Origin: a virus
Lineage: Duplodnaviria; Heunggongvirae; Uroviricota; Caudoviricetes
Length of the DNA: 64,000 nucleotides
Virus record (IMG/VR): IMGVR_UViG_3300043410_001642
Coordinates: 41,120 to 105,119 of that record
Direction: 5' to 3' (one strand)
How positions within the stretch are numbered: position 1 is the stretch's first letter; every line of letters starts with the position of its first letter. Shown here piece after piece: positions 4,934 through 55,284 of the stretch. The notes under the pieces are model-generated. The model was not told the origin of the DNA. It saw nothing but the letters and a program-made list of their open reading frames with translations, and searched no databases. The position numbers were made by a program, and so were the translations under genes.

Positions 4934-5130
4934 AAAAGATTCTACAATTGTTAATATATTGTGGATAACTTAAATTTGTAAATATGAAATATTATTCTTA
5001 CATTTGTTACATGAATTTAATTTTAGGGAATTATACAAACTTTTTAATATACGAATAGAAGTAATAGGTGAGGCGGCATCCTCGCCTATTTTTTTATATA
5101 AACAAAACAAAAACAAAAAAACAAACAATT

Positions 5131-7674
5131 ATGAAAAAAGCAGGATTATTGTTATCGGCTCTATTTGTTACCTTTGTTTCCTTCGGGCAAATTAAGGGTA
5201 GAGTAGTTGACGGAACAACAAAAGAAGTGCTAGTTGGTGCAACAATTAGTAATGGAAAAGGCGGCGTTACTTCAGGATTAGATGGAACTTTTGAATTTAA
5301 ATCAGCGAAAGTTGGTGATAAATTGAAAGCATCATTCGTAGGATATGCGCAAAAGGAAATAGTTGCGGCTAATGATATCACAATTGAATTACAATCAACT
5401 TCAATCGGTTTGAAAGAAGTAGCTGTAATTGCATCTTATGGTATCGATAGAAAAACACCAGCGGCTATCTCATCAATTTCAACAAAGTTTGCAGTTGAAA
5501 ACTTAGGTTCACAAGAATTACCTGAATTAGTAAAAATCACTCCATCTGCATTTATTACAAAAGGTGGTGGTGGAACTGGTGATTCTCGTATTAACATTAG
5601 AGGATTTGACCAAAAGAATGTGGCAATCTTAATTAATGGTGTGCCAGTAAATGATATGGAGAGTGGTTGGGTTTATTTCTCAAACTGGGCAGGTATCGGT
5701 GATGCATTAAAACAAATGCAAGTTCAAAGAGGTTTAGGAGCATCTAAATTAGCAATTCAATCAGTTGGTGGTACAATGAATATTATCACTAAAACTACTG
5801 ATGCTGAAAAGGGTGGTTCTATCCAACAATCATTAACTGATTATGGTATGAGTAAAACTACATTATCATTATCAACTGGTAATACTAAATACGGAGCATT
5901 TTCTTTCGTAGGTAGTAGAACTTTTGGTAATGGATATATTGATGGAACTTATACAAAAGCATATTCTTATTTCTTATCTTATGCCAAAGATTTAGGTAAG
6001 AATCATAAAATTCAATTCACTGCAATTGGAGCTCCACAAGAGCATGGCCAAAGAACATCTCGTTTAACTCCGGTAGAATATACAAAGTATGGTTTGAAAT
6101 ATAACAAGGATATCTACACTATCAATGGAGAACAAAACAATATCGCAACAAACTATTATCACAAACCAATTTTCAGTTTAAATCACTATTGGACAATTTC
6201 TCCAAAGACGACTTTAAATACTTCAGCTTATGCTTCAATTGGTCATGGTGGTGGTAGTGGTGCAATTGGTTCTTATGCTTCTACAATTGTTAGAGATGCA
6301 GAAGGTCATTTAGTATTAGACCCTCAAGTTGCAATTAACGCAGCATCTACAACGGGTTCTAAATATGGTATCCGTAACTCAATCAATAACCACACATGGT
6401 ATGGTGTGTTATCAACTTTAAATCATGATTTAACTGATAACTTAAACTTAACATTAGGTGTTGATGCGAGAACTTACAAAGGAACTCACTTCAGAGAAAT
6501 GAGAGATTTAATTGGTGGTTCTTATTACAAAGATATCTTTGTAACAAAAGCAACTGTTGACCCGAATGCAAGTGATTATATTGATATCACAAAGATTACT
6601 CCTGAAAATAATCGTGTTGCTTATGACAACGATGGTTTGGTTGATTACGAAGGTACATTCGGACAATTAGAGTATTCAAAAGATAAATTATCAGCATTCG
6701 TACAAGGTGCAATTTCTCAAACTCAATATCAAAGAGCAGATAGATATTATGCTAATCAAGTAGAACATTTATCAGAGAAAGTAAATATCACAGGATACAA
6801 CTATAAAGGTGGATTTAATTACAACTTTGATGGTAAAAACAATATCTTTGTTAATGCTGGTCAATATAGTAGAGCACCTTACTTCTCATTCATCTTCAAC
6901 GGAGCATCGCCAACTTCTGCTACTGCAATCAATAGTGGTAATGTGGTAAACTCTAACATTAAGAATGAAGAAGCAACTGCATATGAAGTAGGATATGGTT
7001 TCAGAAGTAGAGCATTCCGTTTCAAAGCAAATGCATACTATACCGATTTCGCAAATCGTTCTTTAACTTCTCCGTTATTAACAAATGCAGATGGAACACA
7101 ATATAGAGCTTTAATTACAGGTCAAGGTGCATTACACCAAGGTTTAGAATTTGAAGCGGCTGTTAAAGTAACTTCTAAATTAGACATCAATGGTTTCGCA
7201 TCATTTGGTGATTGGAAGTGGAAAGGTAATGCATCAGCAGTTATCAGAGATGAAGTTAAAAATACTGATGTTAAAACAAACATTTATTCCGATGGATTAT
7301 ATGTAGGTGACCAACCACAAACACAATTAGGTGCTTACGCAAGATATCAAGTAACGAAAGGATTGGATGTATCGGCAACTTATACTTACAATGATAAGTA
7401 TTTTGCTTACTATGACCCAACTTCTCGTACTAATCCTGCAATCACTGCACAACCTTATCAATTACCTGCATTTGGTGTAACTGATGCAAGAGTTGGATAT
7501 AAATTTAAATTAGGTAAGTATGAAACATATGCACAATATCAAGTGTATAACTTATTTAATGAAGATTATTGGGTTGAAGCAAATGATGCCGGCGGTACTG
7601 CAGTAGGTACATTAGGTAGTGGTTTCAAAGGATGGGGAATTAACCAAAACTTTAGTTTGAAAGTTAGTTTCTAA
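5131..7674 (+). CDS. TonB-dependent receptor-like outer membrane protein (SusC/CarbopepD_reg type)
   Basis: Signal peptide MKKAGLLLSALFVTFVSFGQ; N-terminal carboxypeptidase-regulatory-like domain (IKGRVVDG...); plug-like region; 868 aa track ORF ends in terminal F (KVSF). Track start 5068 is a GTG; ATG at 5131 preferred. Confidence 0.7.
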   Translation: MKKAGLLLSALFVTFVSFGQIKGRVVDGTTKEVLVGATISNGKGGVTSGLDGTFEFKSAKVGDKLKASFVGYAQKEIVAANDITIELQSTSIGLKEVAVIASYGIDRKTPAAISSISTKFAVENLGSQELPELVKITPSAFITKGGGGTGDSRINIRGFDQKNVAILINGVPVNDMESGWVYFSNWAGIGDALKQMQVQRGLGASKLAIQSVGGTMNIITKTTDAEKGGSIQQSLTDYGMSKTTLSLSTGNTKYGAFSFVGSRTFGNGYIDGTYTKAYSYFLSYAKDLGKNHKIQFTAIGAPQEHGQRTSRLTPVEYTKYGLKYNKDIYTINGEQNNIATNYYHKPIFSLNHYWTISPKTTLNTSAYASIGHGGGSGAIGSYASTIVRDAEGHLVLDPQVAINAASTTGSKYGIRNSINNHTWYGVLSTLNHDLTDNLNLTLGVDARTYKGTHFREMRDLIGGSYYKDIFVTKATVDPNASDYIDITKITPENNRVAYDNDGLVDYEGTFGQLEYSKDKLSAFVQGAISQTQYQRADRYYANQVEHLSEKVNITGYNYKGGFNYNFDGKNNIFVNAGQYSRAPYFSFIFNGASPTSATAINSGNVVNSNIKNEEATAYEVGYGFRSRAFRFKANAYYTDFANRSLTSPLLTNADGTQYRALITGQGALHQGLEFEAAVKVTSKLDINGFASFGDWKWKGNASAVIRDEVKNTDVKTNIYSDGLYVGDQPQTQLGAYARYQVTKGLDVSATYTYNDKYFAYYDPTSRTNPAITAQPYQLPAFGVTDARVGYKFKLGKYETYAQYQVYNLFNEDYWVEANDAGGTAVGTLGSGFKGWGINQNFSLKVSF

Positions 7675-7699
7675 TTTAAGAAATAAAAATAATAAAAAA

Positions 7700-7726
7700 C
7701 CCTCACTTATTGTGGGGGTTTTTATT
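7700..7726 (+). terminator. rho-independent terminator after TonB-dependent receptor gene
   Basis: CCCTCAC-TTATT-GTGGGGG hairpin + TTTTTATTTT. Confidence 0.6.
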
Positions 7727-7833
7727 TTAATGGTAATAGTCAAAGTTACAACTTCTATATTTATAGATGGTTATTTAAATTTTGTTTTGTAAATTGTTAT
7801 ATATTTGAGTTTTAAAAAAAAATATTTCGTTTT

Positions 7834-8484
7834 ATGAAACAAGCAGCATTACATTTAAAAAACAATATAGGAGATTACTTAGGTAAAGGATTTCTTATAT
7901 TAGTAGGGTTTTGGATATTATTTGCCCTATGTTTTCAATTATTCTTTGTTTATCTACATTTTTCTGGCAATGATGATTTAGGAACTAAAATTTCTAATGA
8001 AATTATGTGGAAAATTGATGGAACATTCAAAAATAATCCAGGTAACATTTGGTATAATGCCGAAGAGCATATTTGGGTTGAATCGGTAACCAATCAAGTT
8101 AAAATAGGAAAATTAGCCGGAAATAGAAATTTAGAATTCGGTTTAAAAAATATATTAGAAGAGTTTTTACAAGAGAAAGGTTTGGATTTAGCTCCAGATG
8201 CTACTCAAAAATTAAAAGTGGACATCGTTTATTTAGATGTTCTGACTACAAAAAAGAATATATCAGTATTCCACTCTAATGAGGAGGAAGTTGTTATCCG
8301 TTTAAGAGGAACACTCTATAAAAATGGTAAAAAAGACAAAGAGGTTATGGTTGAAGAAAGTTCATCGGAAATCTCTATGGCAACTTTGATAGTAGATGAG
8401 GGTGGTGGTTTCAACCAAACTTCCTTAAGTAATGCACTTAAGAAAGGTTGTGGAAAACTTGTAACCAAATTACTAGAAAAGTAA
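7834..8484 (+). CDS. hypothetical membrane protein
   Basis: 216 aa; hydrophobic N-terminal segment; TAnnTTTG box about 25 nt upstream. Confidence 0.4.
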   Translation: MKQAALHLKNNIGDYLGKGFLILVGFWILFALCFQLFFVYLHFSGNDDLGTKISNEIMWKIDGTFKNNPGNIWYNAEEHIWVESVTNQVKIGKLAGNRNLEFGLKNILEEFLQEKGLDLAPDATQKLKVDIVYLDVLTTKKNISVFHSNEEEVVIRLRGTLYKNGKKDKEVMVEESSSEISMATLIVDEGGGFNQTSLSNALKKGCGKLVTKLLEK

Positions 8485-8485
8485 A

Positions 8486-10174
8486 ATGAAAAAAATCTTA
8501 TTATTTTTAGGGGTATTGATGGTATCCCTATCATCGTTTGGTCAATTAACTATTAATAGAACGATATCACCAATATCTACAACATACAAAGTTGGTGATA
8601 CATTGACCGTAAAATATGTTATAGATAAAGGAACAAATCCTGTAACGACACCTCGTTATTTTTGGTTAAGATATCAGTATAGTAATAAATCATTATTATT
8701 ATTACCGAACTCTACAACTTATGGACAAGGAACTTCGGTGCAAACTTACAACACTGAATGGGCTAATTACAAATTCACTTCAAATTCAACTAAACCTGCG
8801 ACATCTTTATATGAGCAATATTTGGCATCACCATGGAGTTTTGTTGTAAATTCAGATTGGAATGTTGGACAATTGACTGTTCAGAGAACTGATGCATCTA
8901 TTAATGGTGAATTGGCATCTCAAAAATTTATTATTAAAGATAACCTATCTTATACTGATATTCATAGTTTAATATTAGCATATTCAATTGATGCAACTTC
9001 TGCGTATATTTCACCTATTACAACAACCGGTGATGTAATATCATTGGGTAATGTAAAAGGTGGTTCTTCATCGTTTAAAGTTAAAGTGGCATTCCCATCA
9101 ACTTATACTACAATCACCGACCATAATGTTCAATTGATGAGATTGAAAACGGATGGTAGTGGAACGATAGATTGGTCACAGCAACCTATCACAACTGCTC
9201 CATTGGATGCAAGCGGTGAGGCTACATTTACTACATTAAAGATTGGAGATTCAGTTGGTGTATTTGTCGCACCTGCATATCAAAAGACTTGGATGAATAA
9301 TGTTGTGACAGTATCAGATGCATATAAAGCATTCTTAGCAATTTCACAAGTTGATATTAATGGTAATCCTACATATTTCACATATCCTAATTTGGAAAAG
9401 AAAGTTGGTATAATTACAAAGAACAAAATGGCATTTAGTGAAAGTGATGGATATTATTTATTTTCTCATGTAATGGGAATTAATGTAGATTCAAATGCAA
9501 TGATTCCAACTGCAACTTCAACATCAGTTAGATGGTATAGTGGTTTATTGAATCAAGGCTGGTTAGATGGAACACCTACAAATAAAGTGGTAATAACTGC
9601 AAACACACAAACTGCTAATGCGGTATTTGCATGGGGTGGTGATTTAAACTGGTCACATTCAACTGATCCAGCGGTAGTTGCACAAAACATTTCAACTAAT
9701 ACAAATGTAACTAATTCAGTAAAATCATTAGGATTGATAACAATGAATATTAAAACTGCTGAAGCATCAGTTGGTGCAGCAGTTGGTGCATATCAAGTAG
9801 CTGAAAATCCAAAAGCAACTCTAAGTGTAAATTCATCATTGGTAGATGGTAAAGTAGTATTAACTACAACTTTAACAAAAGAAGGATTAGCTGGTTTAGA
9901 AGTAATTATGAATTATGATGATAGTAAATTAACTTTGGATAATGTAATATTTGATGCAGGTTCTACTATTACAAATTTCTCTACACATGATAATGGTAGA
10001 TTAACATTTGGTTCTATTGACCAATTGAAAACGGCAAGAATTAAAATAGGAACTCCATATAAATTAATATTTACTCCTAAGACATCTTTAACGAACACCG
10101 CAGGTTTATTCTACTTTGTATTATCAGATGCGGTAGATGCATCAGGAAATAAAATAGACTTAATTGTTGAATAA
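8486..10174 (+). CDS. secreted hypothetical protein
   Basis: 562 aa; signal peptide MKKILLFLGVLMVSLSSFGQ; T/S/N-rich beta-type composition. Confidence 0.45.
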   Translation: MKKILLFLGVLMVSLSSFGQLTINRTISPISTTYKVGDTLTVKYVIDKGTNPVTTPRYFWLRYQYSNKSLLLLPNSTTYGQGTSVQTYNTEWANYKFTSNSTKPATSLYEQYLASPWSFVVNSDWNVGQLTVQRTDASINGELASQKFIIKDNLSYTDIHSLILAYSIDATSAYISPITTTGDVISLGNVKGGSSSFKVKVAFPSTYTTITDHNVQLMRLKTDGSGTIDWSQQPITTAPLDASGEATFTTLKIGDSVGVFVAPAYQKTWMNNVVTVSDAYKAFLAISQVDINGNPTYFTYPNLEKKVGIITKNKMAFSESDGYYLFSHVMGINVDSNAMIPTATSTSVRWYSGLLNQGWLDGTPTNKVVITANTQTANAVFAWGGDLNWSHSTDPAVVAQNISTNTNVTNSVKSLGLITMNIKTAEASVGAAVGAYQVAENPKATLSVNSSLVDGKVVLTTTLTKEGLAGLEVIMNYDDSKLTLDNVIFDAGSTITNFSTHDNGRLTFGSIDQLKTARIKIGTPYKLIFTPKTSLTNTAGLFYFVLSDAVDASGNKIDLIVE

Positions 10175-10175
10175 T

Positions 10176-12482
10176 ATGAAAAGAATTGTTACACTTTTAT
10201 TCTTATTAACATCTTATTTTGGGTTTGGTCAGAGTGTATCTGCACCAGACCCTATTGTATTTACACAATCCACAAACGGACAAGATGCTAGTGGATTTGT
10301 ATTAAGTGGATTTAGTTCAACTGCAACTTTACTAACATCAATCAGTTTGGTAAATCCTCCAACTGGTACTACATTCTACCTAACTACAACAGCAGGATTA
10401 GCTGCAGCAAGTGGTTTTACATTGAGTGGTAATAAAACTCGTTTAGTATTTACTGGTACAATGGAAAACATTAACATTGCGTTAAATTCTTTGAAAGTAA
10501 ATACTGGTGTAACAAAAGGAGAAGTTAAATTATCAGTAGCAGCAACTGTCAATCCAACGGGATATTATTACAATGGTGTAAATGGACACTTCTATAAACC
10601 CGTAACAAACGGAAATACATATACGGGTGCAAGAGCAGCAGCCGAAGCAACAACATTCAAAGGGCAAACGGGATACTTAGTAACAATTACTTCTTCCGAT
10701 GAAGATGCTTTTATATATAACAATGTACCTCAATCACAAATATGGTTCGCATTAACCGATGAGGTTGTAGAAGGTAGATGGGTAATTGATGCTGGACCTG
10801 AAAAGGGAACTTTAATCAAAACATCAAACGGACAAACTGCGGGAAACATAGCTGGGCAATATAACAACTGGGCAGGTGGAGAGCCAAATAATAGTGGTAA
10901 TGAAGATTATGCAGTAACTAAATGGAATGGAACTCAATGGAACGATTTACCAAATGGATATTATTGTCCATATGTAATTGAATATGGAACTTGGTCCAAT
11001 CCCGATGATGCAACATTTACGGAGTTTTATACGAATTCAGTTTCTCATTCAAACGGACAAAGTTTAAGAGTTCAATTTAATTTTGATTTTGGCAATAATG
11101 TAGATGAAACAAAGTTTGCTACAAAAATGTACACAACTTCGGATTATGTAAACTATTCACCGGCAACAAACGCAGGATACAAATCACTAAATGGTTTGGG
11201 TAAAGTTGATATGAGTGCGGATATGGATACTGTAAAAGCAGCTACTGGGTTATATAAAGCAACTACAATTGGTGGACAAGCAGAATGGTGTGTAATATAC
11301 GATTATGATTTAACAAACCATAGATATAGAGTTGGTATTGATAGTAGAGAATTTATAGGTAGTTCTATAACTCCGAGTCAAATTTCTATTTTACAATTGT
11401 TTGATTTATATTATGGCAATGCTGAATTTGTATCATATGATCCAAATGGATGGGCTGAATATTATATCAATACAAATGTTGAATTTAATTTTGACCAATC
11501 AACATATGGAACTTATATTAGAAATGGTGGTTGGTATCGTGCGTTGAAAGCAGAGTTTTCATTTAGTGAATATTTGGCATATAAACAACATGATTTATTA
11601 TTTCAAGCATATAATGAAACTCAATTAGGTGCATTATATGGTCAAATAGTAACAGTATCGGATGTGTATTTAGCATTTAAGGAATTATCAAATAGTGGTA
11701 TATTTGGAAACCAAACCGGTAATGAATTTGCATATGGTATTCAATATGATAATGCTGATGTAAATGATGATGGATATTTTAACGAAACTGATACATATCT
11801 TTTATTGCAACACCTAACAGGTACAGGTACAAATCCTTTAGTAGCAGCAAATGTATTACCATATATGATGAAATTAGTACCACAAGAAACATATAACGAA
11901 ATTGGCAAGTCTAATTGGAACACTTTTCCATCTTTTCAGAGAGCAAAGTACCCAATTACATTTAATCCAACATCATTAAATGCATATAATGTAAGTGTAA
12001 CTTGGAAAGGAGATGTTAATTTATCACATTCAGCGATACCATCTGGAATTAATGCTACAAATTCAATTAATAATCAATTATCTCAAATAAAATCAATGTC
12101 GGTAACTACTAATTCAATTGGTGATGTAGAAGCTGATATTATGATGGAGAAAGTTGGTGATAGTGTTATTGCAACAATTAATTTAAATGCAAATGGAAAT
12201 CAGATAGGAGCTACACAATTTAATGTATTTTTTGATAATTCAGTTTTAGATTTTGTTAAAACGGAATATACTAATACAAAATCAACTAACTTTGGTAAAA
12301 ACAATGGTACATTCATTAGCGTGGGTTCATTAAATACATCAGGAGGTTCGGTTGATACTATTGGATATAAAATAACATTTAAACCAAAAGCAACTATTAC
12401 AAATATATTAGGATTGATTTCAGTGACAAGTGTTGAAACATTGGGAACTAACTTAAATAAATTAAATGTAAAGATACTATAA
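10176..12482 (+). CDS. secreted C-type lectin domain protein
   Basis: Signal peptide; WFALTDEVVEGRWV ... NNWAGGEPNN ... WNDLPNGYYC matches C-type lectin fold signature; track start 10164 is TTG, ATG at 10176 preferred. Confidence 0.6.
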   Translation: MKRIVTLLFLLTSYFGFGQSVSAPDPIVFTQSTNGQDASGFVLSGFSSTATLLTSISLVNPPTGTTFYLTTTAGLAAASGFTLSGNKTRLVFTGTMENINIALNSLKVNTGVTKGEVKLSVAATVNPTGYYYNGVNGHFYKPVTNGNTYTGARAAAEATTFKGQTGYLVTITSSDEDAFIYNNVPQSQIWFALTDEVVEGRWVIDAGPEKGTLIKTSNGQTAGNIAGQYNNWAGGEPNNSGNEDYAVTKWNGTQWNDLPNGYYCPYVIEYGTWSNPDDATFTEFYTNSVSHSNGQSLRVQFNFDFGNNVDETKFATKMYTTSDYVNYSPATNAGYKSLNGLGKVDMSADMDTVKAATGLYKATTIGGQAEWCVIYDYDLTNHRYRVGIDSREFIGSSITPSQISILQLFDLYYGNAEFVSYDPNGWAEYYINTNVEFNFDQSTYGTYIRNGGWYRALKAEFSFSEYLAYKQHDLLFQAYNETQLGALYGQIVTVSDVYLAFKELSNSGIFGNQTGNEFAYGIQYDNADVNDDGYFNETDTYLLLQHLTGTGTNPLVAANVLPYMMKLVPQETYNEIGKSNWNTFPSFQRAKYPITFNPTSLNAYNVSVTWKGDVNLSHSAIPSGINATNSINNQLSQIKSMSVTTNSIGDVEADIMMEKVGDSVIATINLNANGNQIGATQFNVFFDNSVLDFVKTEYTNTKSTNFGKNNGTFISVGSLNTSGGSVDTIGYKITFKPKATITNILGLISVTSVETLGTNLNKLNVKIL

Positions 12483-12838
12483 TGAAGTGGATTAGAATTA
12501 TATTATTGTGTTGTGTGGTATTTATGATTTCTTGTCATAAAGAAGAAATATTGCCAGTAACACCTCCGATAGCTAGAGTAGATGTATTTACTCAATCCGA
12601 TAATAGTGTATCTAATGGAGATGAAATTATGTTCAAACTAACATCTGATAGCACTTATATATTAAAGTTGGTAGATAAGGCTACAAATCAGGTAATAAGT
12701 AAAGAAAAGATAGTTGGTAAGATAGGAGAAAATAAACTTAATATATATACGAAATCAATACAAAGTAAATATTTATATTTGATTTTAGAGTCAATTGATA
12801 AAAAGGAAATAAAGAAAACAACAATAAACATAAATTAA
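12482..12838 (+). CDS. lipoprotein
   Basis: Lipobox-like MISCHKEE after signal peptide; C-terminal region resembles Bacteroidetes T9SS sorting domain. Confidence 0.45.
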   Translation: MKWIRIILLCCVVFMISCHKEEILPVTPPIARVDVFTQSDNSVSNGDEIMFKLTSDSTYILKLVDKATNQVISKEKIVGKIGENKLNIYTKSIQSKYLYLILESIDKKEIKKTTININ

Positions 12839-12839
12839 A

Positions 12840-13208
12840 ATGAAGAAATTATTGGTATTATTAGGAAGTGTTATGTTATTAGTTGCTTGCCATAAGGAAG
12901 ATTTACCATCTCCTGCGGTAAATGTAGCTGAAGATTTAAAGATAGCAAGTTCTACTGGTATCAAATTACAATCATCTTTCGTAACTTCAGAAGTTGCAAT
13001 GAATGTAAAAGCAGAAGTAGCAGGAAGTGTATCTATCAAAATATTAGATATTGCTAATAGAGTAGTATCAAAGGAAACGATGAATGTAAGTGCGGGTGAT
13101 AATGTATTAAAAGTATATACAACTGCATTACCTAAATCAGCATATAGAATTGCTTTATATAATTCTAATGGTTCTCTATTAGGAATTACAGATTTTAATA
13201 AGTTATAG
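12840..13208 (+). CDS. lipoprotein
   Basis: LLVACHKED lipobox; C-terminus (VSIKILDIANRVV...YRIALYNSNGSLLG) resembles T9SS C-terminal sorting domain. Confidence 0.45.
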   Translation: MKKLLVLLGSVMLLVACHKEDLPSPAVNVAEDLKIASSTGIKLQSSFVTSEVAMNVKAEVAGSVSIKILDIANRVVSKETMNVSAGDNVLKVYTTALPKSAYRIALYNSNGSLLGITDFNKL

Positions 13209-13236
13209 TAAAAACAACTAAAAAAACAAAAACAAA

Positions 13237-13554
13237 ATGGCAGAAGAACAAGAAGAATCAACTGGAAAATCCTTTAAGGGTATTTTAATTGGTTTAGCAA
13301 GCACAATCACTTTGGGAGTTGGTGGTTTCATCACTAACAAATTAACAGGTGGTGAAGAAAAGGAAACACCGGTTCAACAAGCGGCTCCGGTAATTAATAT
13401 CCAAAATACACAACAACAATCAGCGGGTAAGACTGTAATTGTAAATGGTGGTGGAAATGGTGGTGCAACTGCAAAACCAGCAGAGGCAAAACCAGCGGCA
13501 CCGGTTAAGAAAAAAGAAGGAGACGAATTCAAAGAGAAACCAGCTCAATGGTAA
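13237..13554 (+). CDS. hypothetical membrane protein
   Basis: 105 aa; one TM segment; Ala/Pro/Lys-rich tail. Confidence 0.4.
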   Translation: MAEEQEESTGKSFKGILIGLASTITLGVGGFITNKLTGGEEKETPVQQAAPVINIQNTQQQSAGKTVIVNGGGNGGATAKPAEAKPAAPVKKKEGDEFKEKPAQW

Positions 13555-13645
13555 TCTATGGATTGGTATAAAATAGGGGTTACGGGATTTTTTATATTGT
13601 TCTTTATTGGAACAATGTATATAGCAATAAAACAAAGAGAGAAAA

Positions 13646-14272
13646 ATGAGTAATCAACAACAACCGCCGAGTGGTTTCAAAGACCTATTAAATAAAATGA
13701 TGGCCAGAAGATGGTATATCACTGCATTAGTATTAGGTTCATTTGTAATAATTATCGGTGGTATATTTGCAGCAATTACTTCCAAAACACCTGCATCAGC
13801 AGAATGGAAGGAACTTTTATTATTAATGTTAGGTGCTTTCATTGGTTCTTATGGTAAAATCATTGACTATTGGTTTAGTGATACTGATAAGGATAAGATG
13901 TTAGTTCAAAAAATGGATGAAGAAGATGGTGTTACCCTTTCACATACAAATGATATGAAAGAAAGTAACAAAGAAATCGGACCAACCATTCCAGACGCAT
14001 TTATTAAAGCAGCTGAAAAAGCACAATCTGAACCAATTTTAAATGATACATTTCAACAAGTTCCTGCTACTCCAAAAGTAGAAGCAAAGAAAGGTGTTGA
14101 AATAGATGAGGATGGAGATGGTGTAATGGATGGTATTGATATTGATGGGGATGGTAAAATCGATGAATACTTTGCACATAGACAATGTGAGCATGTTTGG
14201 GGTGATGCTGATGGAGATGGACACGAAGAATGTCAAAAGTGTGGTTTGTTGAGAGAACAATATAACGGATAA
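13646..14272 (+). CDS. membrane protein with Asp-rich Ca-binding-like repeats
   Basis: TM helix then DEDGDGVMDGIDIDGDGKIDE and DADGDGHEEC repeats with CxxC. Confidence 0.4.
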   Translation: MSNQQQPPSGFKDLLNKMMARRWYITALVLGSFVIIIGGIFAAITSKTPASAEWKELLLLMLGAFIGSYGKIIDYWFSDTDKDKMLVQKMDEEDGVTLSHTNDMKESNKEIGPTIPDAFIKAAEKAQSEPILNDTFQQVPATPKVEAKKGVEIDEDGDGVMDGIDIDGDGKIDEYFAHRQCEHVWGDADGDGHEECQKCGLLREQYNG

Positions 14273-14316
14273 ATTAGTTACGGAATTGTTATAGTTAAAT
14301 GTTTAAATAAGAAACT

Positions 14317-14592
14317 ATGGGATTCTTTAAAGATTTAGTTAGTGATGAAAATCACATTAATGAAAAATCATTCATTGGTATTTGCTCATTCGGAGTAATG
14401 GTATTATGTATGATTGTTGATTTAGTAACAGGAGCACTTAACAAACCACTTTTAATTAATGAGTTTGTTTTTGATGCTTTTATGTATTTAACATTAGGGG
14501 CTTTTGGTATAGCTTCAGTGGATAAATTTATTAATAAAAAATCAATCACCGACAAAGCAAAAATAGATGCCGGTGTTGAAGAAGAAGGATAA
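14317..14592 (+). CDS. small membrane protein (holin-like candidate)
   Basis: 91 aa with two hydrophobic segments, upstream of the endolysin region. Confidence 0.35.
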   Translation: MGFFKDLVSDENHINEKSFIGICSFGVMVLCMIVDLVTGALNKPLLINEFVFDAFMYLTLGAFGIASVDKFINKKSITDKAKIDAGVEEEG

Positions 14593-14599
14593 TTAAATT

Positions 14600-15370
14600 A
14601 TGTATAAAGTAAGAGGATATTACAAACCGGAAGATTCTTTCCATACTATTAAAGAATGGGAAGAAATTTCTAAGCAATTTTTAGATTTAGAAAAGCAAGG
14701 GTTTGATACCAGAGGTGGAAACATTGATGGTAATCCTCAACTTATACAATTAATTCATAAGTATTTTGGATACCAACTTTATATTGAAACTGAACAATTT
14801 CCTTCTTTGACTAGAAAGAAAGTATTAGATTTTATTGAAGATTTTACTAATCATAGAGTATGGTCTATCAGAGATGAATTCAAAGATTATTTAGTTAATA
14901 TAGATAACGATAAGATTGCATTTTTCAACTCAAGAGATAATATAGAACCATATGTTCTTTTAGATGAACAATTTACAACTGATTTATATGGAAAAACTGA
15001 TTCTGAATTAGTAACATTCCATTGGACAGATAAAGCGGGATTAATTAATATAATAGATTCGGTAAAGAACGGATATAAATTTGAAATATCAACTTTCACA
15101 ACACAGGCAAAGGAATTTTTCAGACCAGAACAAAATGTGTTAGTTAAATTAAAAGGTGATTTAGTTGCAGCTTTCAAATCAGATGCAAAAACATATACAA
15201 CTGATAGAGGTAAGAAAGCGGCTAATATGTATAGATTGGGTTATCCGGAAGGTGAAAGTAATTTGTGTAGAAATCCAAATGATTGCACACAAAATAAAAC
15301 ATCATTATGGAATGAAATAATAATCAAACCAAAAGAGGTTATGGCATACAAAGAAATAAAAAAATATTAA
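14600..15370 (+). CDS. hypothetical protein
   Basis: 256-aa ORF ending 1 nt before the endolysin start. Confidence 0.45.
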   Translation: MYKVRGYYKPEDSFHTIKEWEEISKQFLDLEKQGFDTRGGNIDGNPQLIQLIHKYFGYQLYIETEQFPSLTRKKVLDFIEDFTNHRVWSIRDEFKDYLVNIDNDKIAFFNSRDNIEPYVLLDEQFTTDLYGKTDSELVTFHWTDKAGLINIIDSVKNGYKFEISTFTTQAKEFFRPEQNVLVKLKGDLVAAFKSDAKTYTTDRGKKAANMYRLGYPEGESNLCRNPNDCTQNKTSLWNEIIIKPKEVMAYKEIKKY

Positions 15371-15371
15371 A

Positions 15372-16208
15372 ATGTTATTAAAAAGAGGTGATAACAATGA
15401 AAGTGTAAAATTGTTACAAACAAAATTACATTTAGAACCAATAGGTAACTTTGGCCCTAAAACGGAAGATGCGGTTAAAGTATGGCAAGCGGCTCATGGT
15501 TTAACAGCAGATGGTATCGTAGGTGATAAGACATGGGCGATGATTATGGGAGATGAAGAGCACGAAGAAGTTAAACAACAAGTAGCGGCAGTAGCATCTT
15601 CAACTGGATTAAACTTAGCTAAATTAAAAGGGCATGTGCCGGATGCAGTAATTGCTATGATTCCTGATACGGCAGCTAAATTCCAAATCAATACTCCATT
15701 GAGATTAGCACACTTCTTAGCACAATGTGGTCATGAGAGTGGTGGGTTTAGAGTAACATCTGAAAACTTAAACTATTCTGCAAAGGGATTAAATGGTATA
15801 TTCAAAAAGTATTTCCCAACTGAAGCTGCAGCAGCGGCTTATGCTAGAAACCCACAAAAGATTGCTAACAAAGTATATGCAAATAGAATGGATAACGGAA
15901 GTGAAGCAAGTGGTGATGGATACAAATTCAGAGGAAGAGGATATATCCAATTGACAGGTAGAGCAAACTATACATTATTCGGTAAAGCAATCGGAGAAGA
16001 TATAGCAAACAATCCTGATTCAGTTAGTGGTAAGCATGCTTTATTATCAGCGGCATGGTTCTGGTCTAAAAACGGATTGAACAAATTAGCTGATGGAGGT
16101 GCTGGTGATTCAGTGGTAACATCTATTACTAAGAGAGTAAATGGTGGAACTATCGGATTAGCAGATAGAATTAAACATTTTAAAGAGTATTATTCTTTAT
16201 TATCATAA
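15372..16208 (+). CDS. endolysin: peptidoglycan-binding domain + glycoside hydrolase family 19-like lysozyme
   Basis: N-terminal PG_binding_1-like repeat (KLLQTKLHLEPIGNFGPKTEDAVKVWQAAHGLTADGIVGDKTW); catalytic region GHESGGFRV...YKFRGRGYIQLTGRANY typical of GH19 lysozyme/chitinase. Confidence 0.75.
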   Translation: MLLKRGDNNESVKLLQTKLHLEPIGNFGPKTEDAVKVWQAAHGLTADGIVGDKTWAMIMGDEEHEEVKQQVAAVASSTGLNLAKLKGHVPDAVIAMIPDTAAKFQINTPLRLAHFLAQCGHESGGFRVTSENLNYSAKGLNGIFKKYFPTEAAAAAYARNPQKIANKVYANRMDNGSEASGDGYKFRGRGYIQLTGRANYTLFGKAIGEDIANNPDSVSGKHALLSAAWFWSKNGLNKLADGGAGDSVVTSITKRVNGGTIGLADRIKHFKEYYSLLS

Positions 16209-16213
16209 TTTAA

Positions 16214-16241
16214 AAGGGAGAACATAGTTTTCCCTTTTTTT
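16214..16241 (+). terminator. rho-independent terminator after endolysin
   Basis: AAGGGA-GAACATAGTT-TTCCCTT + TTTTT. Confidence 0.55.
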
Positions 16242-16265
16242 ATATTTATACAAAACAAACAAACT

Positions 16266-17303
16266 ATGGGTAACATATTTGGTGATATAGGTGGTTGGAT
16301 TGATGATAACATTGTAAAACCAATTGATAATAACATCATAAAACCAATTGATGATGGTGCAAAGGATGTAATCCATATCGTAGTTGATGGGACGGTTCAA
16401 ACTTACAATGATGCTACAAAAGTAGTAAATGATGCTGGTAATTTTGTTGTTGATATTTCGAAAGATACATACAACTATTCAGTAGCATTTGCAATGGATA
16501 CCGCATATAGAACGGCAGATGCTGGTTCATATGTTGCAAGAAATACTGAAGATTTTAGTAAAGCGGGATTAGATGTAACTCAAAAGGAGTTTATCAATTT
16601 ATCTAAACAAGCAGAAACACAAATCATAAATGGAGTTGAAGTAATTAAATATGGTTTTGATTATGCATATAATTGGTTAGATGAAAATGCTTGTAGAATT
16701 GGATTAACTGCGGCTATCTCTATGGGATTTGTTGCAGCATTTTCACCATCAAATCCACAAGGTGCGGCTAAATCCACAAGTATTTCTGCTATGGTTATCA
16801 CAGCAGTTGAAAGTGCTGGTTCTGCGGCTAAGAAAACAGCAGTTAATACTGCATTAGCATATGCAGTAGCATTGGCAATAATTGAACCTATTTGGGCTAT
16901 TCCTGGAGTTGGAGGTTGTTGTGATAAAACATTATTAACGAATTGTATTTCAAATGCAATTTATTATTCATTTGATGTTAGTATGGAATTATGGATGTCC
17001 GGTGCGGGAGTTTGTATTGCATTAGGTGCAGCAGTTGCTCCAATCATCGCTACATACATTTGTACAAGAACGATGCCTAATGGATTTTCAAAAGCAATTA
17101 CTGATCCACATAGTAACGCAAATTCGTTGGAAACGCTTACACAATCCATTAAAAGTAGTGAAAAATGTTACAATAACTTACCAGTGGGTTGGTCTTCAAA
17201 AGCACCAAAAGGAGTGATGTATAGTTCAAATATGCCACCGGCTGGATATAAGTGGGTATATGGGCCAAAAAATGAAAGAGAAAAAGCTAGAATAGATTGT
17301 TAA
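16266..17303 (+). CDS. hypothetical membrane protein
   Basis: 345 aa with several Ala/Gly-rich hydrophobic stretches. Confidence 0.4.
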   Translation: MGNIFGDIGGWIDDNIVKPIDNNIIKPIDDGAKDVIHIVVDGTVQTYNDATKVVNDAGNFVVDISKDTYNYSVAFAMDTAYRTADAGSYVARNTEDFSKAGLDVTQKEFINLSKQAETQIINGVEVIKYGFDYAYNWLDENACRIGLTAAISMGFVAAFSPSNPQGAAKSTSISAMVITAVESAGSAAKKTAVNTALAYAVALAIIEPIWAIPGVGGCCDKTLLTNCISNAIYYSFDVSMELWMSGAGVCIALGAAVAPIIATYICTRTMPNGFSKAITDPHSNANSLETLTQSIKSSEKCYNNLPVGWSSKAPKGVMYSSNMPPAGYKWVYGPKNEREKARIDC

Positions 17304-17325
17304 ATTAATTAAATGAAAAAAGTAT

Positions 17326-18048
17326 ATGAAAAAATTGTTGGTATTTTTAAGCTTATTTTTATTAAGCAGTGTTGCGGTTGTTGCTCAAACGATAGGAAGC
17401 GTAAAAACGGAACAGTTCAAAGCATCATTCGAAACTAAATCAGATATTACTAAATTTTTAGATTATGATGGCCCTCAAATTCCGATACAAATTCTCAAAT
17501 GTGGCATCGGTGATGAGGTTTATGAGCAATATCCAGAGCTCAAGGAAAAGAAAGTGGGTTTGGGTGTGGCTAATATCACGCTTGAATATTTGGATAATCT
17601 TGGTAGATTTACATTTACGGAAGATAAAACAGAAATTAAAAATAGAATGGTAAAGCAATTCCAAGCATCTCAAGCAGGAATTTCTCAGGATAAATTAGAT
17701 GGTAGAGGTAAAATCCGTTTAGCTCATTACTTTGTTGAAATAGAAGTATATGATTATTCAGTATCGGAAGATGAAAGTATTAGTATGAAAGATGGTATTA
17801 AGGATAATATGGTAACTCGTATCGGTTTGCAAGTTAGATTTACTGATGCTGAAAATGGAACTATTATAGCAGCATCTGGATTAGGAGAAGCTACGACAAA
17901 TAGACAATTAACTTTATTATCAGATGCAACTGTGGATCCAATCAAATTTAATCAATCAACTATATCAATCTCTACTAAAAAAGCATTGGATATAGCTTGT
18001 GCGAATATATTATCTAAAATGGTTAAAAAAGGTGTATTCACTAAATAA
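17326..18048 (+). CDS. secreted hypothetical protein
   Basis: Signal peptide MKKLLVFLSLFLLSSVAVVAQ. Confidence 0.45.
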   Translation: MKKLLVFLSLFLLSSVAVVAQTIGSVKTEQFKASFETKSDITKFLDYDGPQIPIQILKCGIGDEVYEQYPELKEKKVGLGVANITLEYLDNLGRFTFTEDKTEIKNRMVKQFQASQAGISQDKLDGRGKIRLAHYFVEIEVYDYSVSEDESISMKDGIKDNMVTRIGLQVRFTDAENGTIIAASGLGEATTNRQLTLLSDATVDPIKFNQSTISISTKKALDIACANILSKMVKKGVFTK

Positions 18049-18052
18049 ATTA

Positions 18053-18160
18053 TGGCAAACAAAAAGAGTAAAAAAAGAGCTATGAGAAGTGTTAAATCTG
18101 GAGTGAAAACTTTAGAGTTAATAAAAAAGAATCAAGAAATATTAAATAAGTATAGATAAT
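18053..18160 (+). CDS. small basic protein (35 aa)
   Basis: MANKKSKKRAMRSVKSG...; short ORF not in track; low confidence. Confidence 0.25.
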
Positions 18161-18240
18161 TTCTTAATAATTTGTTAATATAAAAGTAACAAATTTAGAA
18201 CAATACTTTCCTACTTATTGTTGAACACAAAAACAACATA

Positions 18241-21200
18241 ATGAGGAAAGTATTTTTATTTATGATGATGTTAGTTTCTTTAACATCGTTTTCACAAATT
18301 ACAAACTCGAACATTTCGGGTAGAATTAAAGATAAAAAGGGAGAATCTATCCCTGGCACAACAATCCAACTAATCTTAAAATCAAATGGTGTAAAATACA
18401 ATACATCTACTGATGGCAGTGGTATTTATCATATCTACAATGCAAATGTAGGTGGGCCATATTCAATTAAGATTACATCAATTGGATTCAAACCTTATGA
18501 GAAATCTAATTTAGAATTCAATTTAGGTGATAACATTTTAGATGTAACATTAGAAGAAGAAAATACACAATTGAAAGAGGTTGTGGTAGTTGCACAAAGA
18601 AATGGTATTAAGGGTAGTGGTATGGTATTAGGAGAACAAAAAATAAGTTCTATACCAACTCTATCTCGTTCAATTACGGATTTCACAAAATTAGTTCCAC
18701 AATCAATAAATAACTCTTTTGCAGGAACAAACTTTCGTTACAACAATGTAACTATTGATGGAACAATTAATAATGATGCTATTGGGTTCTCTCCATCATT
18801 AGGTGGGCAAGCGGGAACATCTGGTATGCCTGGTTCATCAACTAGAACATCACCAATATCATTGGATGCAATACAAGATATACAAGTTTATGTTGCACCA
18901 TTTGATGTTAAGGTAGGTAACTTTTTAGGTGGTTCAATCAACGCAATTACAAGAAGTGGAACAAACGATGTAAAAGGTTCGGTATATGTTTATGGAAGAA
19001 ATAGTTCATTAGCAGGATTCAATACAACAAATGAATTCCATGATTATCAGACTGGATTCAGAATTGGATTACCATTAAAGAAAGATAAATTATTCTTATT
19101 CACATCGGGTGAAATTACAAATAGAAATGAACCTGTATTCTATGGTTCTAATAGTGGTGGATTAGTTTCTGATTCATTAGCAAATGTTATTTCTACATTT
19201 ACAAAAACTAAATACGGATACAATGTAGGTGATTACAAAGATTACTCAATCTATTCAAAATCACAAAAGATATTCAATAGATTAGATTGGAATATCAACT
19301 CTCATAATCAATTAACATTGAGAAACAACACTGTCTTTTCTGAAGCAACAAATTTAGAAAGAGATTTGGGTAATTTTCGTTTTGGTTCTATGGACTTCAA
19401 ACAAAACAATAACCAATCTTCAACAGTCGCAGAGTTAAGAACAAATGTAGGTAAAATATCAAATTCATTAATCATAGGTTATTCTAATATCAAAGATTTT
19501 AGAACTCCTTTATCTGAAAACATTTCATTCCCACAAACTGAAATTGCATACAATGGTGGAACTATCTTTATAGGAAACGAAAGAGAGGCTACCATATTTA
19601 ATATGAAACAAAAGACAACTGAATTTACTGATAATTTCAATTTTTCAGTTGGTACGCATAATATCTTAATTGGAACTCATAATGAATTTTACGATTTATC
19701 TTATGGGTTTGTGAATAGTTGGAATGGTAGAATTTCTTACAAATCAGTTGGAGATTATTTAGCAGGAAAAGTAAATAGAGTTAGAGGATTTTATTCATTT
19801 GGTAATAATGATAGAGATTACATATTTGATAATCCATATGCAAACTACAAAGTAAATTTATATAGTGGTTACTTACAGGATGAGATATTATTAGGTGATT
19901 TCAGAGTAACACCAGGTATTCGTTTTGACTATACTGGATTACCAAACAAACCAAACATATCTTCACAGGCACCAACACAATACACAAACGATTATTTCAA
20001 CAACTTAAACATATCACCAAGAATTGGATTTACATATAAAAACAATGGATGGAATATCAAAGGTGGTAGTGGTGTATTCGTAGGTAGAATTCCTTTTGCT
20101 TGGTTAGGATATGCATACTACAACGATGGTGTTGGATTTGGTTCATTTGATTTGAATAATAGAGCAACACTTACAAATGTTGGTGACCCAATTAAAGATG
20201 GTTCAAAAGTATGGGCATTCAATAACGGACAAAAGAATTTAGTTCAAATGGATATAATTGATAATGGATTTAAGATGCCGAAAGTATGGAGAAGTAATTT
20301 TGGTATTGATAAAACAATTGAAGGATATAAAATCGGAATAGAAGGATTATATACACAGGTTCTTACTGATTTGAAATTCCAACAAATAAATATCATAACT
20401 GATAATCCAACTTATTATTCATTTGATACTCAAAAGGAAATGCCAATTTATAGTGGAGCAAAAGTAAATTCAAATTTATCAAATGCTTACTTATTATCAA
20501 ATACGGATAAAGGATATAGATATCAAATTACAACTACATTAAATAAAAGATACCCATTTGGTTTAGATGTATATGGTGCATACACTTATGGTGTTGCAAA
20601 AGATGTAACAAATGGTATCAGAAATTCAATGGAATCAAACTGGCAGTTAAATCAATCCCTAACTCCAAATGACCCTCAATTATCATATTCAAACTTTGAT
20701 GTTAGACATAGAATCATTTCAACACTAACATATAGATTAAAAACAACACAAGTAACTATGGTATTAAACTCACAAAGTGGAGTACCATTTACTTGGGGAT
20801 TGGTAAATGGAACATTACAAAACAACCCACAATCTGCAGGATTAGTTTATATCTTTAAAGATAATGAGGTTAGTAAATACATAACAAACCCAACACAATC
20901 AACTGCATTTACGGAGTTCGTAAATGGTAATGAATATTTGAGTAGTAGAAAAGGAAGTTTCACCGAAAGAAATGGTGGAAGAACCCCATGGAGCACAACA
21001 TTGGATATGAAGATTACTCAAAATGTTGGAAAACATCTACAATTCACAGCTGATTTGTTTAACCTAACAAATCTATTAAATGAAGAGTGGGGGAAGATAT
21101 ACTTCGTATCAAATACATTCAATTCAACATCATCAGTTGGATTATCAAAAGTAAGTGGTGAGGTATTCAGTTTTACAAAACCAACTCAAACTCCATATTC

Positions 21201-21258
21201 AATAGACCCGATAAATAGTAAGTGGCAAGTTCAAATGGGAGTTAGATATAATTTTTAA
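18241..21258 (+). CDS. TonB-dependent receptor (SusC-like)
   Basis: Signal peptide; N-terminal CarbopepD_reg-like domain (ISGRIKDKKGESIPGTTIQL); plug-like region; 1005 aa; terminal F (VRYNF). Confidence 0.7.
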   Translation: MRKVFLFMMMLVSLTSFSQITNSNISGRIKDKKGESIPGTTIQLILKSNGVKYNTSTDGSGIYHIYNANVGGPYSIKITSIGFKPYEKSNLEFNLGDNILDVTLEEENTQLKEVVVVAQRNGIKGSGMVLGEQKISSIPTLSRSITDFTKLVPQSINNSFAGTNFRYNNVTIDGTINNDAIGFSPSLGGQAGTSGMPGSSTRTSPISLDAIQDIQVYVAPFDVKVGNFLGGSINAITRSGTNDVKGSVYVYGRNSSLAGFNTTNEFHDYQTGFRIGLPLKKDKLFLFTSGEITNRNEPVFYGSNSGGLVSDSLANVISTFTKTKYGYNVGDYKDYSIYSKSQKIFNRLDWNINSHNQLTLRNNTVFSEATNLERDLGNFRFGSMDFKQNNNQSSTVAELRTNVGKISNSLIIGYSNIKDFRTPLSENISFPQTEIAYNGGTIFIGNEREATIFNMKQKTTEFTDNFNFSVGTHNILIGTHNEFYDLSYGFVNSWNGRISYKSVGDYLAGKVNRVRGFYSFGNNDRDYIFDNPYANYKVNLYSGYLQDEILLGDFRVTPGIRFDYTGLPNKPNISSQAPTQYTNDYFNNLNISPRIGFTYKNNGWNIKGGSGVFVGRIPFAWLGYAYYNDGVGFGSFDLNNRATLTNVGDPIKDGSKVWAFNNGQKNLVQMDIIDNGFKMPKVWRSNFGIDKTIEGYKIGIEGLYTQVLTDLKFQQINIITDNPTYYSFDTQKEMPIYSGAKVNSNLSNAYLLSNTDKGYRYQITTTLNKRYPFGLDVYGAYTYGVAKDVTNGIRNSMESNWQLNQSLTPNDPQLSYSNFDVRHRIISTLTYRLKTTQVTMVLNSQSGVPFTWGLVNGTLQNNPQSAGLVYIFKDNEVSKYITNPTQSTAFTEFVNGNEYLSSRKGSFTERNGGRTPWSTTLDMKITQNVGKHLQFTADLFNLTNLLNEEWGKIYFVSNTFNSTSSVGLSKVSGEVFSFTKPTQTPYSIDPINSKWQVQMGVRYNF

Positions 21259-45471: not shown

Positions 45472-45478
45472 ACCCTAA

Positions 45479-46114: not shown

Positions 46115-46115
46115 A

Positions 46116-55207: not shown

Positions 55208-55279
55208 CGCGGGGTAGAGCAGTGGTAGCTTGGTGGGCTCATAACCCATAGGTCGGTGGTTCGAATCCATCCTCCGCAA
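55208..55279 (+). tRNA. tRNA-fMet (CAT), initiator-like
   Basis: C1xA72 unpaired acceptor end, three consecutive G-C pairs in anticodon stem, loop CTCATAA, T-arm GGTGGTTCGAATCCATC. Confidence 0.8.
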
Positions 55280-55284
55280 CTAAA

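Follow-up and report, generated by a model that had tools for sequence, protein, structure and literature searches.

TonB-dependent transporters (TBDTs) reported earlier from phages are annotations, none of which was put to an experimental test (PMC9723777; bioRxiv 10.64898/2026.05.02.722434). The marine megaphage Mar_Mega_1 and the huge phage LR745206 encode a presumed TonB-dependent receptor called 'SusC', read as enhancing uptake (Michniewski et al. 2021, PMC9723777), and six TBDTs of phages of ammonia-oxidising bacteria were discussed together with iron- or heme-related auxiliary genes (preprint, bioRxiv 10.64898/2026.05.02.722434). Two further papers name TBDTs for hosts alone and none for phages (PMC6784887, PMC12494485). 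Here we describe two TBDT genes, TBDR1 and TBDR2 (Table 1), located 10.6 kb apart in a 64,000-nucleotide stretch of the IMG/VR virus record IMGVR_UViG_3300043410_001642 (positions 41,120 to 105,119), hereafter called the window. The presence of two TBDTs of different families in one phage is new, as is a TBDR1 clade of at least 65% identity that is known, among the contexts examined, from phages alone; purifying selection is quantified for the first time, and recurrent linkage to iron- or cofactor-dependent genes is reported.

The window is like Mar_Mega_1 in that a TBDT gene lies within a very large phage with a predicted Bacteroidota host. However, Mar_Mega_1 has one copy, which is a SusC by annotation, whereas the window encodes two TBDTs of different families without a SusC signature or a SusD partner, and its phage belongs to another, smaller lineage related to Immutovirus; evidence from selection and gene linkage is added here. 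The matches of LR745206 and LR756501-3 to TBDR1 are confined to the plug region. The TBDTs of ammonia-oxidiser phages are set apart by their description: their hosts are Proteobacteria, and they are of siderophore or heme type without the N-terminal extension of Bacteroidota.

An initial annotation, made from the sequence of the window alone, called a phage-encoded outer-membrane receptor rare. This is true of the BFVD viral structure library, where the sole other TBDT fold is a Mar_Mega_1-type protein (E 1.5e-36; 13% identity in the structural alignment), and of the cultured phages in the deposited-phage collection searched, in which no TBDT was found. It holds less well for metagenomic viruses, since relatives from the TBDR1 family occur on at least 65 IMG/VR contigs and those from the TBDR2 family on at least 17, and Mar_Mega_1 is a precedent; the IMG/VR and GTDB scans were pattern-limited, and the IMG/VR contig counts are lower bounds. 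Among phage uptake genes, cyanophage pstS is a copy of a host uptake component that is expressed in infection and relieves a nutrient limit, as supported by experiment. Its product is a periplasmic phosphate-binding protein, not a TonB-dependent outer-membrane barrel.

Domain architecture and fold of TBDR1 and TBDR2

By domains and fold, both proteins are genuine TonB-dependent transporters. In TBDR1, a CarbopepD_reg_2 domain (PF13715, 4e-10) precedes a Plug domain (PF07715, 1e-11; 45.7 bits, cutoff 23.9) and a TonB_dep_Rec_b-barrel domain (PF00593, 1.4e-17; 65.2 bits, cutoff 27), a barrel of the 22-strand type. The N-terminus is signal-peptide-like and of typical Bacteroidota type (MKKAGLLLSALFVTFVSFGQ), with a predicted cleavage between MKKAGLLLSALFVTFVSFG and Q. 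The protein ends in ...LKVSF, and Phe is the last residue in 27 of the 28 homologues compared. A TonB-box-like motif, LKEVAVIAS, is situated between the N-terminal extension and the plug, and its L-x-E-V-x-V pattern is kept across the 28 homologues.

Searches of TBDR1 and TBDR2 against PDB sequences with phmmer gave no match, so that profiles were needed for matches of this kind. With the TBDR1-family profile, residues 20-100 matched the structures of SusC and RagA N-terminal extensions (9hfj, 6ytc, 6sli), and the plug matched PfeA, FecA, Cir and BtuB. The AlphaFold2 (AF2) model of TBDR1 (predicted local distance difference test score, pLDDT, 78.6) retrieved Fiu, PqqU, FemA, FecA, FhuA and YncD in Foldseek (E 1e-31 to 1e-38), with target-length-normalised TM-scores of 0.64-0.82 among the matches listed, and was aligned to FhuA, FecA and Fiu across approximately 770-790 columns. 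In size and modelled fold, TBDR1 resembles the small-substrate TBDTs Fiu, PqqU, FecA and FhuA. It shares the plug/barrel fold and the TonB box ahead of the plug with Fiu, FhuA, FecA and YncD of Escherichia coli, with PqqU, and with FemA and PfeA of Pseudomonas aeruginosa, while being only 12-15% identical to these classical transporters and carrying in addition the CarbopepD_reg extension typical of Bacteroidota.

The label 'SusC-type', given to both receptors in the initial annotation, could not be retained. The extension of TBDR1 does match those of SusC and RagA, and the TonB box likewise comes after it. However, neither TBDR1 nor TBDR2 matched the SusC/RagA model of NCBIfam (TIGR04056-type signature), no SusD family of Pfam was found in any ORF (open reading frame) of the region 7834-23046 or upstream of TBDR1, and the genes downstream of TBDR1 encode unrelated exported proteins. 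TBDR1 is also about 150-250 aa shorter than SusC/RagA proteins and has a siderophore-type barrel fold.

TBDR2 is a TBDT of a different family or lineage. It contains a CarboxypepD_reg domain (PF13620, 6e-14) and an OMP_b-brl_4 barrel (PF25183, 7e-26; 91 bits, cutoff 30), which we take to be the type found in Oar-like proteins of about 1000 aa. Its N-terminus is signal-peptide-like, its C-terminal end is ...VRYNF, with Phe as the last residue in 25 of 26 homologues, and its TonB-box-like motif, LKEVVVVAQ, is kept in homologues. No match to the Pfam Plug was obtained at E<=0.01; in a profile-profile comparison (hhalign, probability 97.9%, E 3.7e-13), residues 1-256 could be aligned to the TBDR1 family over its extension, TonB box and plug. 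Foldseek with a low-confidence model of TBDR2 returned TonB-dependent transporters only, with YddB, PfeA, FusA and BtuB at the top (E 1e-13 to 1e-18). An extension of PF13620 type followed by plug and barrel is the architecture of Oar, which is dominant in Bacteroidota (PMC6434023). TBDR1 and TBDR2 show the same domain order as Oar of Myxococcus xanthus, a likeness by architecture alone.

Pfam, models and profiles thus agree with the initial annotation on two TonB-dependent receptors with a signal peptide, a CarbopepD_reg-like N-terminal domain, a barrel and a terminal Phe. All the domains expected were found in TBDR1, whereas in TBDR2 the barrel and the extension were detected by Pfam and the plug was not; TonB-box-like motifs lie between extension and plug or plug-like region in both proteins. 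Tail-fibre beta-helix proteins had been named as the alternative identity, and both profiles and Foldseek gave TonB-dependent barrels instead; therefore, TBDR1 and TBDR2 are regarded as TonB-dependent transporters.

Phage identity of the window

The window is almost certainly phage DNA. Its G+C content is about 31% (31.7%), practically all sizeable ORFs are on the plus strand, and most of them have no family match. Homologues of about nine ORFs are present in a cultured phage, the Flavobacterium myovirus vB_FspM_immuto (NC_055915, 160 kb; hereafter immuto), among them ORFs for a DUF4494 protein, a lectin domain, a secreted 240-aa protein and a nuclease as well as two small ORFs next to each other, and a holin-like ORF and the endolysin gene occur in the same order in both. 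The endolysin gene, a large tRNA array and the genes shared with immuto flank the TBDT genes on both sides. Profile scans of the window found non-structural genes only, with no structural hallmark gene among the 64 kb, and megablast of the region 5000-21500 against deposited phages gave no nucleotide match.

The closest relatives of both transporters are encoded on metagenomic contigs of 140-330 kb, several of which are classed as viral in IMG/VR. Their neighbourhoods are of phage type, with orphan ORFs, which abound on those of 177-330 kb, and with genes for endolysins or phage lysozyme, holins, Mom, ThyA or ThyX and ribonucleotide reductase (RNR); family-B DNA polymerase, GroES/EL and queuosine enzymes are encoded there too, and so is heme oxygenase together with bilin reductase. 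A 195-kb viral contig (L143) is collinear with the window over 12482-23046 and has TBDR2 between the genes of the 240-aa protein and a 497-aa protein. The phage-borne same-strand block of the initial annotation is thus supported by the 23 tRNA genes, the endolysin, the ORFs shared with immuto and the phage-like relatives. The source phage is probably a large, jumbo-size, virulent phage of Flavobacteriales-like Bacteroidota and a distant relative of immuto.

Relatives and selection

TBDR1 has relatives in about 77 database clusters at 65-92% identity. At 65% identity and above, they are phage-like in every context examined (P0004, P0008, P0056 and IMG/VR contigs L001-L004, L081 and L082). At about 50%, phage copies (P0085/L072, L005) occur along with clearly chromosomal bacterial copies (P0098/L075, P0120/L076), and a third group is formed by the IMG/VR viral contigs L006-L012 (34-36%). 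In the pattern-limited scan of GTDB species representatives, the best relatives found are about 51-53% identical, and all are from Flavobacteriales-type metagenome-assembled genomes. This distribution makes TBDR1 appear to be an old clade that phages have maintained.

Compared with its phage homologues, TBDR1 has a ratio of nonsynonymous to synonymous substitution rates (dN/dS) of 0.09-0.15 (pairs with unsaturated synonymous sites), and by this measure purifying selection clearly acts on it in phages. In the same genome pairs, TBDR1 is 90% and 86% identical, versus 73% and 71% for the endolysin.

In the case of TBDR2, a rough distance tree shows phage copies at 70-86% identity intermixed with chromosomal orthologues at 62-66%; therefore, TBDR2 looks host-derived, having probably been captured from a host lineage. 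The chromosomal orthologues adjoin parAB/dapB or mreC/PBP2/rodA, and named Cytophagales proteins come next at 53-57% identity. In L143, TBDR2 is 77% identical, which is the level of its best-conserved neighbour. The neighbour-joining trees are rough distance trees and were used for grouping alone, not for counting transfers.

Gene neighbourhoods and the possible substrate

Upstream of TBDR1 the window encodes a ferredoxin, a 2-oxoglutarate (2OG)-Fe(II) oxygenase and a PspC-domain protein, and further away it carries NifU/IscU-like and IscA-like genes (Table 1). Parts of this set recur near TBDR1 in other genomes. Ferredoxin homologues are located about 1-2.5 kb from it in L014, L062/L063 and L081/L082, PspC homologues about 3 kb from it in L002 and L068, and in L062/L063 the genes for NifU, ferredoxin and IscA are directly upstream of a 90%-identical TBDR1. 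In L072, a TBDR1-family gene is found amid RNR, ThyX and queuosine genes.

Genes of the TBDR2 family have comparable neighbours. On a viral contig of 105 kb (L154, IMGVR_UViG_3300008111_000005; locus 1098-8590), a 37%-identical gene comes directly after a B12-type (class II) RNR and is followed by genes for thioredoxin, dUTPase and IscA and for a 2OG-Fe(II) oxygenase, which hints at cobalamin as a possible substrate in this lineage. On L070 (ERZ4229229 NODE_23, 177 kb), a heme oxygenase gene lies 7.5 kb from TBDR2.

Nutrient uptake, of iron or glycan, was one of three roles considered in the initial annotation, and it remains the best supported of them. The link appears to be to iron or a cofactor rather than to glycan, because there is no SusD, no carbohydrate-active enzyme and no SusC signature. 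Substrate evidence was not drawn from the source names 'Fe transport' and 'cobalamin receptor', which are generic.

Several other observations were made on these genes. The heme oxygenase of L070 is accompanied by a ferredoxin-dependent bilin reductase (20560-21664); the two are typical auxiliary genes of cyanophages, and the contig is otherwise Bacteroidota-phage-like. A radical-SAM/SPASM enzyme is encoded in the window at 37163-38422. NifU-like genes of 73% identity occur in a few deposited phages, for example in the records of Phage C48C1 and Acinetobacter phage MD-2021a.

Possible roles during infection

We propose, with moderate confidence, that both TBDTs are functional phage auxiliary genes that raise the import of a limiting metal or cofactor during infection. 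If expressed in the infected cell, both pre-proteins would be exported through host Sec, and the host BAM machinery, recognising the C-terminal Phe, would fold them into the outer membrane; each transporter would be energised by the host TonB-ExbBD through the TonB box between extension and plug. The infected cell would thereby gain extra import capacity that escapes host regulation, for a substrate in short supply. This would most likely be iron or an iron chelate, with cobalamin or another cofactor as the alternative, and its consumers would be the phage-encoded Fe-S, 2OG-Fe(II), radical-SAM and nucleotide-synthesis enzymes.

Several points weigh against this proposal. Bacteroidota hosts are already rich in TBDTs, and the gain from one or two more is not obvious. 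No TonB, ExbB or ExbD genes were found in the window; therefore, host components would be needed. The substrate is not readable from the sequence or the model, and the structural neighbours are only 12-15% identical; heme/transferrin, B12 and siderophore models of NCBIfam match TBDR1 in the plug only and far below their cutoffs, and the bacterial orthologues are in housekeeping neighbourhoods that give no substrate clue. The model of TBDR2 is of low confidence (pLDDT 60.9, and below 50 for residues 108-306, the plug region). Finally, the iron-related neighbours vary among lineages, and the gene linkage may stem from inherited synteny rather than from a common function.

If the proposal is correct, widespread large aquatic phages would alter the uptake of their flavobacterial hosts during infection, and TonB-energised outer-membrane import, probably of iron or a cofactor, would join the nutrient fluxes under virus control. 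For a first experiment on a phage TBDT, the TBDR1 clade is a good choice, given its phage contexts, its strong conservation, a cultured relative without a TBDT and tractable Flavobacterium hosts.

Superinfection exclusion, or another manipulation of receptors, was also suggested in the initial annotation. The phage barrels would replace, mask or out-compete a host TBDT that serves this phage or its competitors as a receptor, or else they would be decoys located on vesicles or debris. Phages classically use TBDTs as receptors, and complexes of FhuA, with T5 pb5 or with the exclusion lipoprotein Llp, are among the structural neighbours of TBDR1; furthermore, TBDR2 is close to a single-copy chromosomal orthologue of host type (62-66% identity), and the TBDT genes are placed among those of other envelope-directed proteins. 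We nevertheless consider this role unlikely. Known exclusion factors are small blockers, not whole transporters, and a decoy would need neither the TonB box nor the plug, which are under strong purifying selection. More receptor would also trap progeny on debris, and the linkage to Fe-S and nucleotide-metabolism genes would be left unexplained.

An Oar-like export function, in which TBDR2 or both transporters would transfer Sec-exported phage proteins encoded nearby onto or across the outer membrane, is rather improbable. Secretion of the protease PopC in Myxococcus requires Oar, a protein of identical architecture (PMC6434023), but this architecture is the commonest one in Bacteroidota and so carries no functional information. 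TBDR2 does lie inside a module of exported proteins, between the genes of the 240-aa and 497-aa proteins, also in the syntenic L142 and L143; these proteins have no recognisable signal of the type IX secretion system (T9SS), and the protein-transporting YddB and FusA are among the top structural neighbours of TBDR2, as judged from its low-confidence model. On the other hand, the lectin/cohesin/lipoprotein module is present in immuto (gp013-gp018) without any TBDT, and relatives of TBDR2 are found in unrelated neighbourhoods (L070, L144, L145, L154). In a wider version of the same idea, which we hold to be very unlikely, the barrels and the module would form an outer-membrane remodelling system, with an Oar-like TBDR2 delivering or displaying Sec-exported phage proteins on the infected cell by means of host TonB energy. 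If true, this would be the first virus-encoded route of protein export through the outer membrane.

It is highly improbable that the TBDT genes are host DNA, whether from a bacterial island or prophage flank or through chimeric assembly. Chromosomal homologues exist in bacteria at 50% (TBDR1) and 62-66% (TBDR2) identity, and some IMG/VR contigs are misclassified. However, both genes are part of an unbroken same-strand block with phage genes on either side, their G+C contents (34.5% for TBDR1 and 30.8% for TBDR2) are in line with that of the window, neither housekeeping nor integrase genes were noticed in the window, and the same genes are found in independent phage-like assemblies, with synteny kept in L062 and L143.

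A role in the virion, in which barrels or N-terminal domains would have been turned into structural or receptor-binding proteins, is scarcely credible even though CarboxypepD_reg-like and Ig-like domains are known from phage tail proteins (a few weak BFVD matches), because the cleavable Sec signal peptide, TonB box, plug and BAM-type C-terminus are all retained, with conservation under purifying selection, the region is non-structural with lysis and metabolic genes adjacent, and Pfam and PHROG gave no tail-fibre or baseplate profile match.

Table 1. Features of the TBDT region and related loci in the window (positions refer to the window)
Feature	Position	Strand	Evidence or remark
4Fe-4S dicluster ferredoxin	3355..3672	+	Pfam Fer4_10 2.7e-11 and related models
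2OG-Fe(II) oxygenase	3992..4741	+	Pfam 2OG-FeII_Oxy_3 4.6e-14
PspC-domain membrane protein, directly upstream of TBDR1	4754..4933	+	Pfam PspC 6.1e-15
Bacteroidota-type promoter-like site TTTG-N20-TACATTTG, upstream of TBDR1	4975..5006	+	Pattern search; consensus match only
Strong hairpin with T-run, 11 pairs, 40 nt ahead of the TBDR1 start codon	5063..5090	+	Terminator scan
TBDR1, classical TBDT, 847 aa: signal peptide 1-19; CarbopepD_reg extension 21-99; TonB box 94-102; Plug 107-215; barrel to Phe847	5131..7674	+	Pfam, PDB profile search, AF2/Foldseek, dN/dS
Intrinsic-terminator-like hairpin just past TBDR1, 12-pair stem with T-run	7695..7723	+	Terminator scan
N-terminally anchored 216-aa protein, first module gene	7834..8484	+	Transmembrane (TM) segment 14-32; Lipoprotein_16-like 9e-5, below cutoff (Pfam)
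Secreted 562-aa protein	8486..10174	+	Signal peptide
Secreted C-type-lectin and cohesin protein, 768 aa	10176..12482	+	Lectin_C 3e-5; C-terminal Cohesin 4.5e-7
Two small lipoproteins, beta-sandwich type	12482..12838, 12840..13208	+	Lipoboxes ISC/VAC
Lysis-type cassette inserted in the module	13237..16238	+	Profile, TM and terminator scans
N-terminally anchored membrane proteins	13237-13554, 13646-14272	+	Cassette members
Holin-like ORF, 2 TM segments	14317-14592	+	Adjoins endolysin counterpart in immuto (gp192/gp191)
Cassette ORF, no assigned function	14600-15370	+	
PG_binding_1 and GH19 endolysin	15372-16208	+	phrog_181 2.5e-75
Terminator closing the lysis cassette	16212-16238	+	Terminator scan
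Secreted 240-aa protein, module core	17326..18048	+	Very high conservation
TBDR2, large TBDT, 1005 aa: signal peptide; CarboxypepD_reg extension 25-116; TonB box 111-119; plug-like region to ~256; PF25183 barrel; terminal Phe	18241..21258	+	Pfam, hhalign, AF2/Foldseek, synteny with L143
Secreted 497-aa protein with low-complexity region, last module gene	21553..23046	+	Signal peptide
NifU/IscU-like (45070-45471) and IscA-like (46116-46439) genes on either side of a nuclease gene	45070..46439	+	NifU_N 3.6e-50; Fe-S_biosyn 9e-20
Array of 23 tRNA genes for 19 amino acids, small ORFs interspersed	55208..63516	+	ARAGORN

Exported-protein module and lysis cassette

Between the receptors, all on the plus strand, are the secreted 562-aa protein, the C-type-lectin protein, the lipoproteins, membrane proteins and the endolysin that the initial annotation had described. 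The conserved members of the module are the 216-aa, 562-aa and lectin proteins, both lipoproteins and the 240-aa and 497-aa proteins; in the window, their genes are broken up by the lysis cassette and by TBDR2. The module is found in the same order beside a distant TBDR1-family gene in L008 and L009, and partially in L010-L015. Immuto gp013-gp018 have the same order of C-type-lectin protein, cohesin-domain protein, small protein, a 238-aa homologue of the 240-aa protein and a protein of about 475 aa, the difference being that no TBDT is present there, whereas the module of the window is split by the lysis cassette and TBDR2. Since the module occurs in immuto without a TBDT, and since the TBDT neighbourhoods differ among relatives, the receptors and the exported 'suite' of the initial annotation do not constitute one functional unit; the module is separate from the receptors, which can now be considered apart from a very highly conserved set of genes common to a cultured phage.

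The 240-aa protein surpasses all others of the region in conservation: among its 4247 homologues, each of the 120 best is at least 82% identical, and immuto gp017 is 53% identical. No match to it was found in Pfam (also in a relaxed search), PHROG, NCBIfam or by profile among PDB sequences; by eye alone, its alpha/beta pattern looks CsgG/LpoB/TolB-N-like, and likewise that of the 216-aa protein. Homologues of the 216-aa protein are encoded in L008, L009 and L062, and those of the 497-aa protein adjoin a gene for a 240-aa-like protein in L008, L009, L142 and L143.

The lectin domain of the 768-aa protein is 41% identical to that of immuto gp013, and the most likely start of the gene is ATG 10176 rather than TTG 10164, because a signal peptide results. 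The 562-aa protein, which has no Pfam match, is paralogous to the lectin protein in its C-terminal 290 aa or so (blastp E 3e-10). A relaxed Pfam search (E<=5) with the C-termini of these two proteins gave Cohesin alone, and in the lectin protein alone. The two lipoproteins are paralogous to each other (E 3e-6). T9SS-like C-terminal domains had been assigned to them in the initial annotation, and this was not confirmed, since no Por_Secre_tail (PF18962), TIGR04183 or type B sorting domain was found in either with Pfam and NCBIfam at E<=0.01. The second lipoprotein is also similar to the CarboxypepD_reg extension of TBDR2, which is encoded 5 kb downstream (18313-18588; 30% identity over 73 aa, E 1.6e-5). 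This may reflect a domain duplication, or the lipoprotein may be a partner or competitor for whatever binds the extension.

Promoters, terminators and other features

The hairpins on either side of TBDR1 give it an insulated layout that is typical of morons. Hairpins with differing stems are also found about 35-45 nt upstream of the TBDR1 start in L062, L002, L068 and L081, and a conserved A/C-rich leader comes after the upstream hairpin in five TBDR1 phages. This hairpin may be a terminator of the preceding gene or an attenuator. As to riboswitches or leaders before either transporter, Rfam gave just sub-threshold amino-acid-leader matches to the terminator after TBDR1, which were rejected. 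A sigma-70 promoter scan of the window gave fewer matches than shuffled sequences, the sigma-70 consensus being uninformative for Bacteroidota.

The window further contains an SPFH/prohibitin-like protein (31550-32494; phrog_200, 1.3e-67), which is 45-48% identical to proteins of crAss-like phages and Lak megaphages and matched 803 phage records, a MoxR/CbbQ-type AAA+ ATPase (28399-29646; AAA_5 1.9e-17, phrog_249) and an FG-GAP-repeat protein (53962-55059; 2.2e-25).

A 32-nt promoter-like motif of Bacteroidota type, TTTGGAwAw.TCA.A.AwTTTT.GTATATTTG (-33 TTTG / -7 TAnnTTTG), is repeated in intergenic regions on the plus strand, at 2409-2440, 32545-32576, 43243-43274, 47473-47504 and 59744-59775, with less exact copies at 48282 and 63575. 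When up to 2 mismatches were allowed, 21 matches were counted, compared with 7.7 +/- 2.5 in shuffles. The motif probably marks a single temporal class of phage promoters, which the host sigma factor would read. Four tandem copies, about 160 bp apart (55141, 55301, 55463 and 55625; window positions 55141-55656), are located at the start of the tRNA array, around the tRNA-Met gene (55208-55280), which points to a repeated promoter-containing unit.

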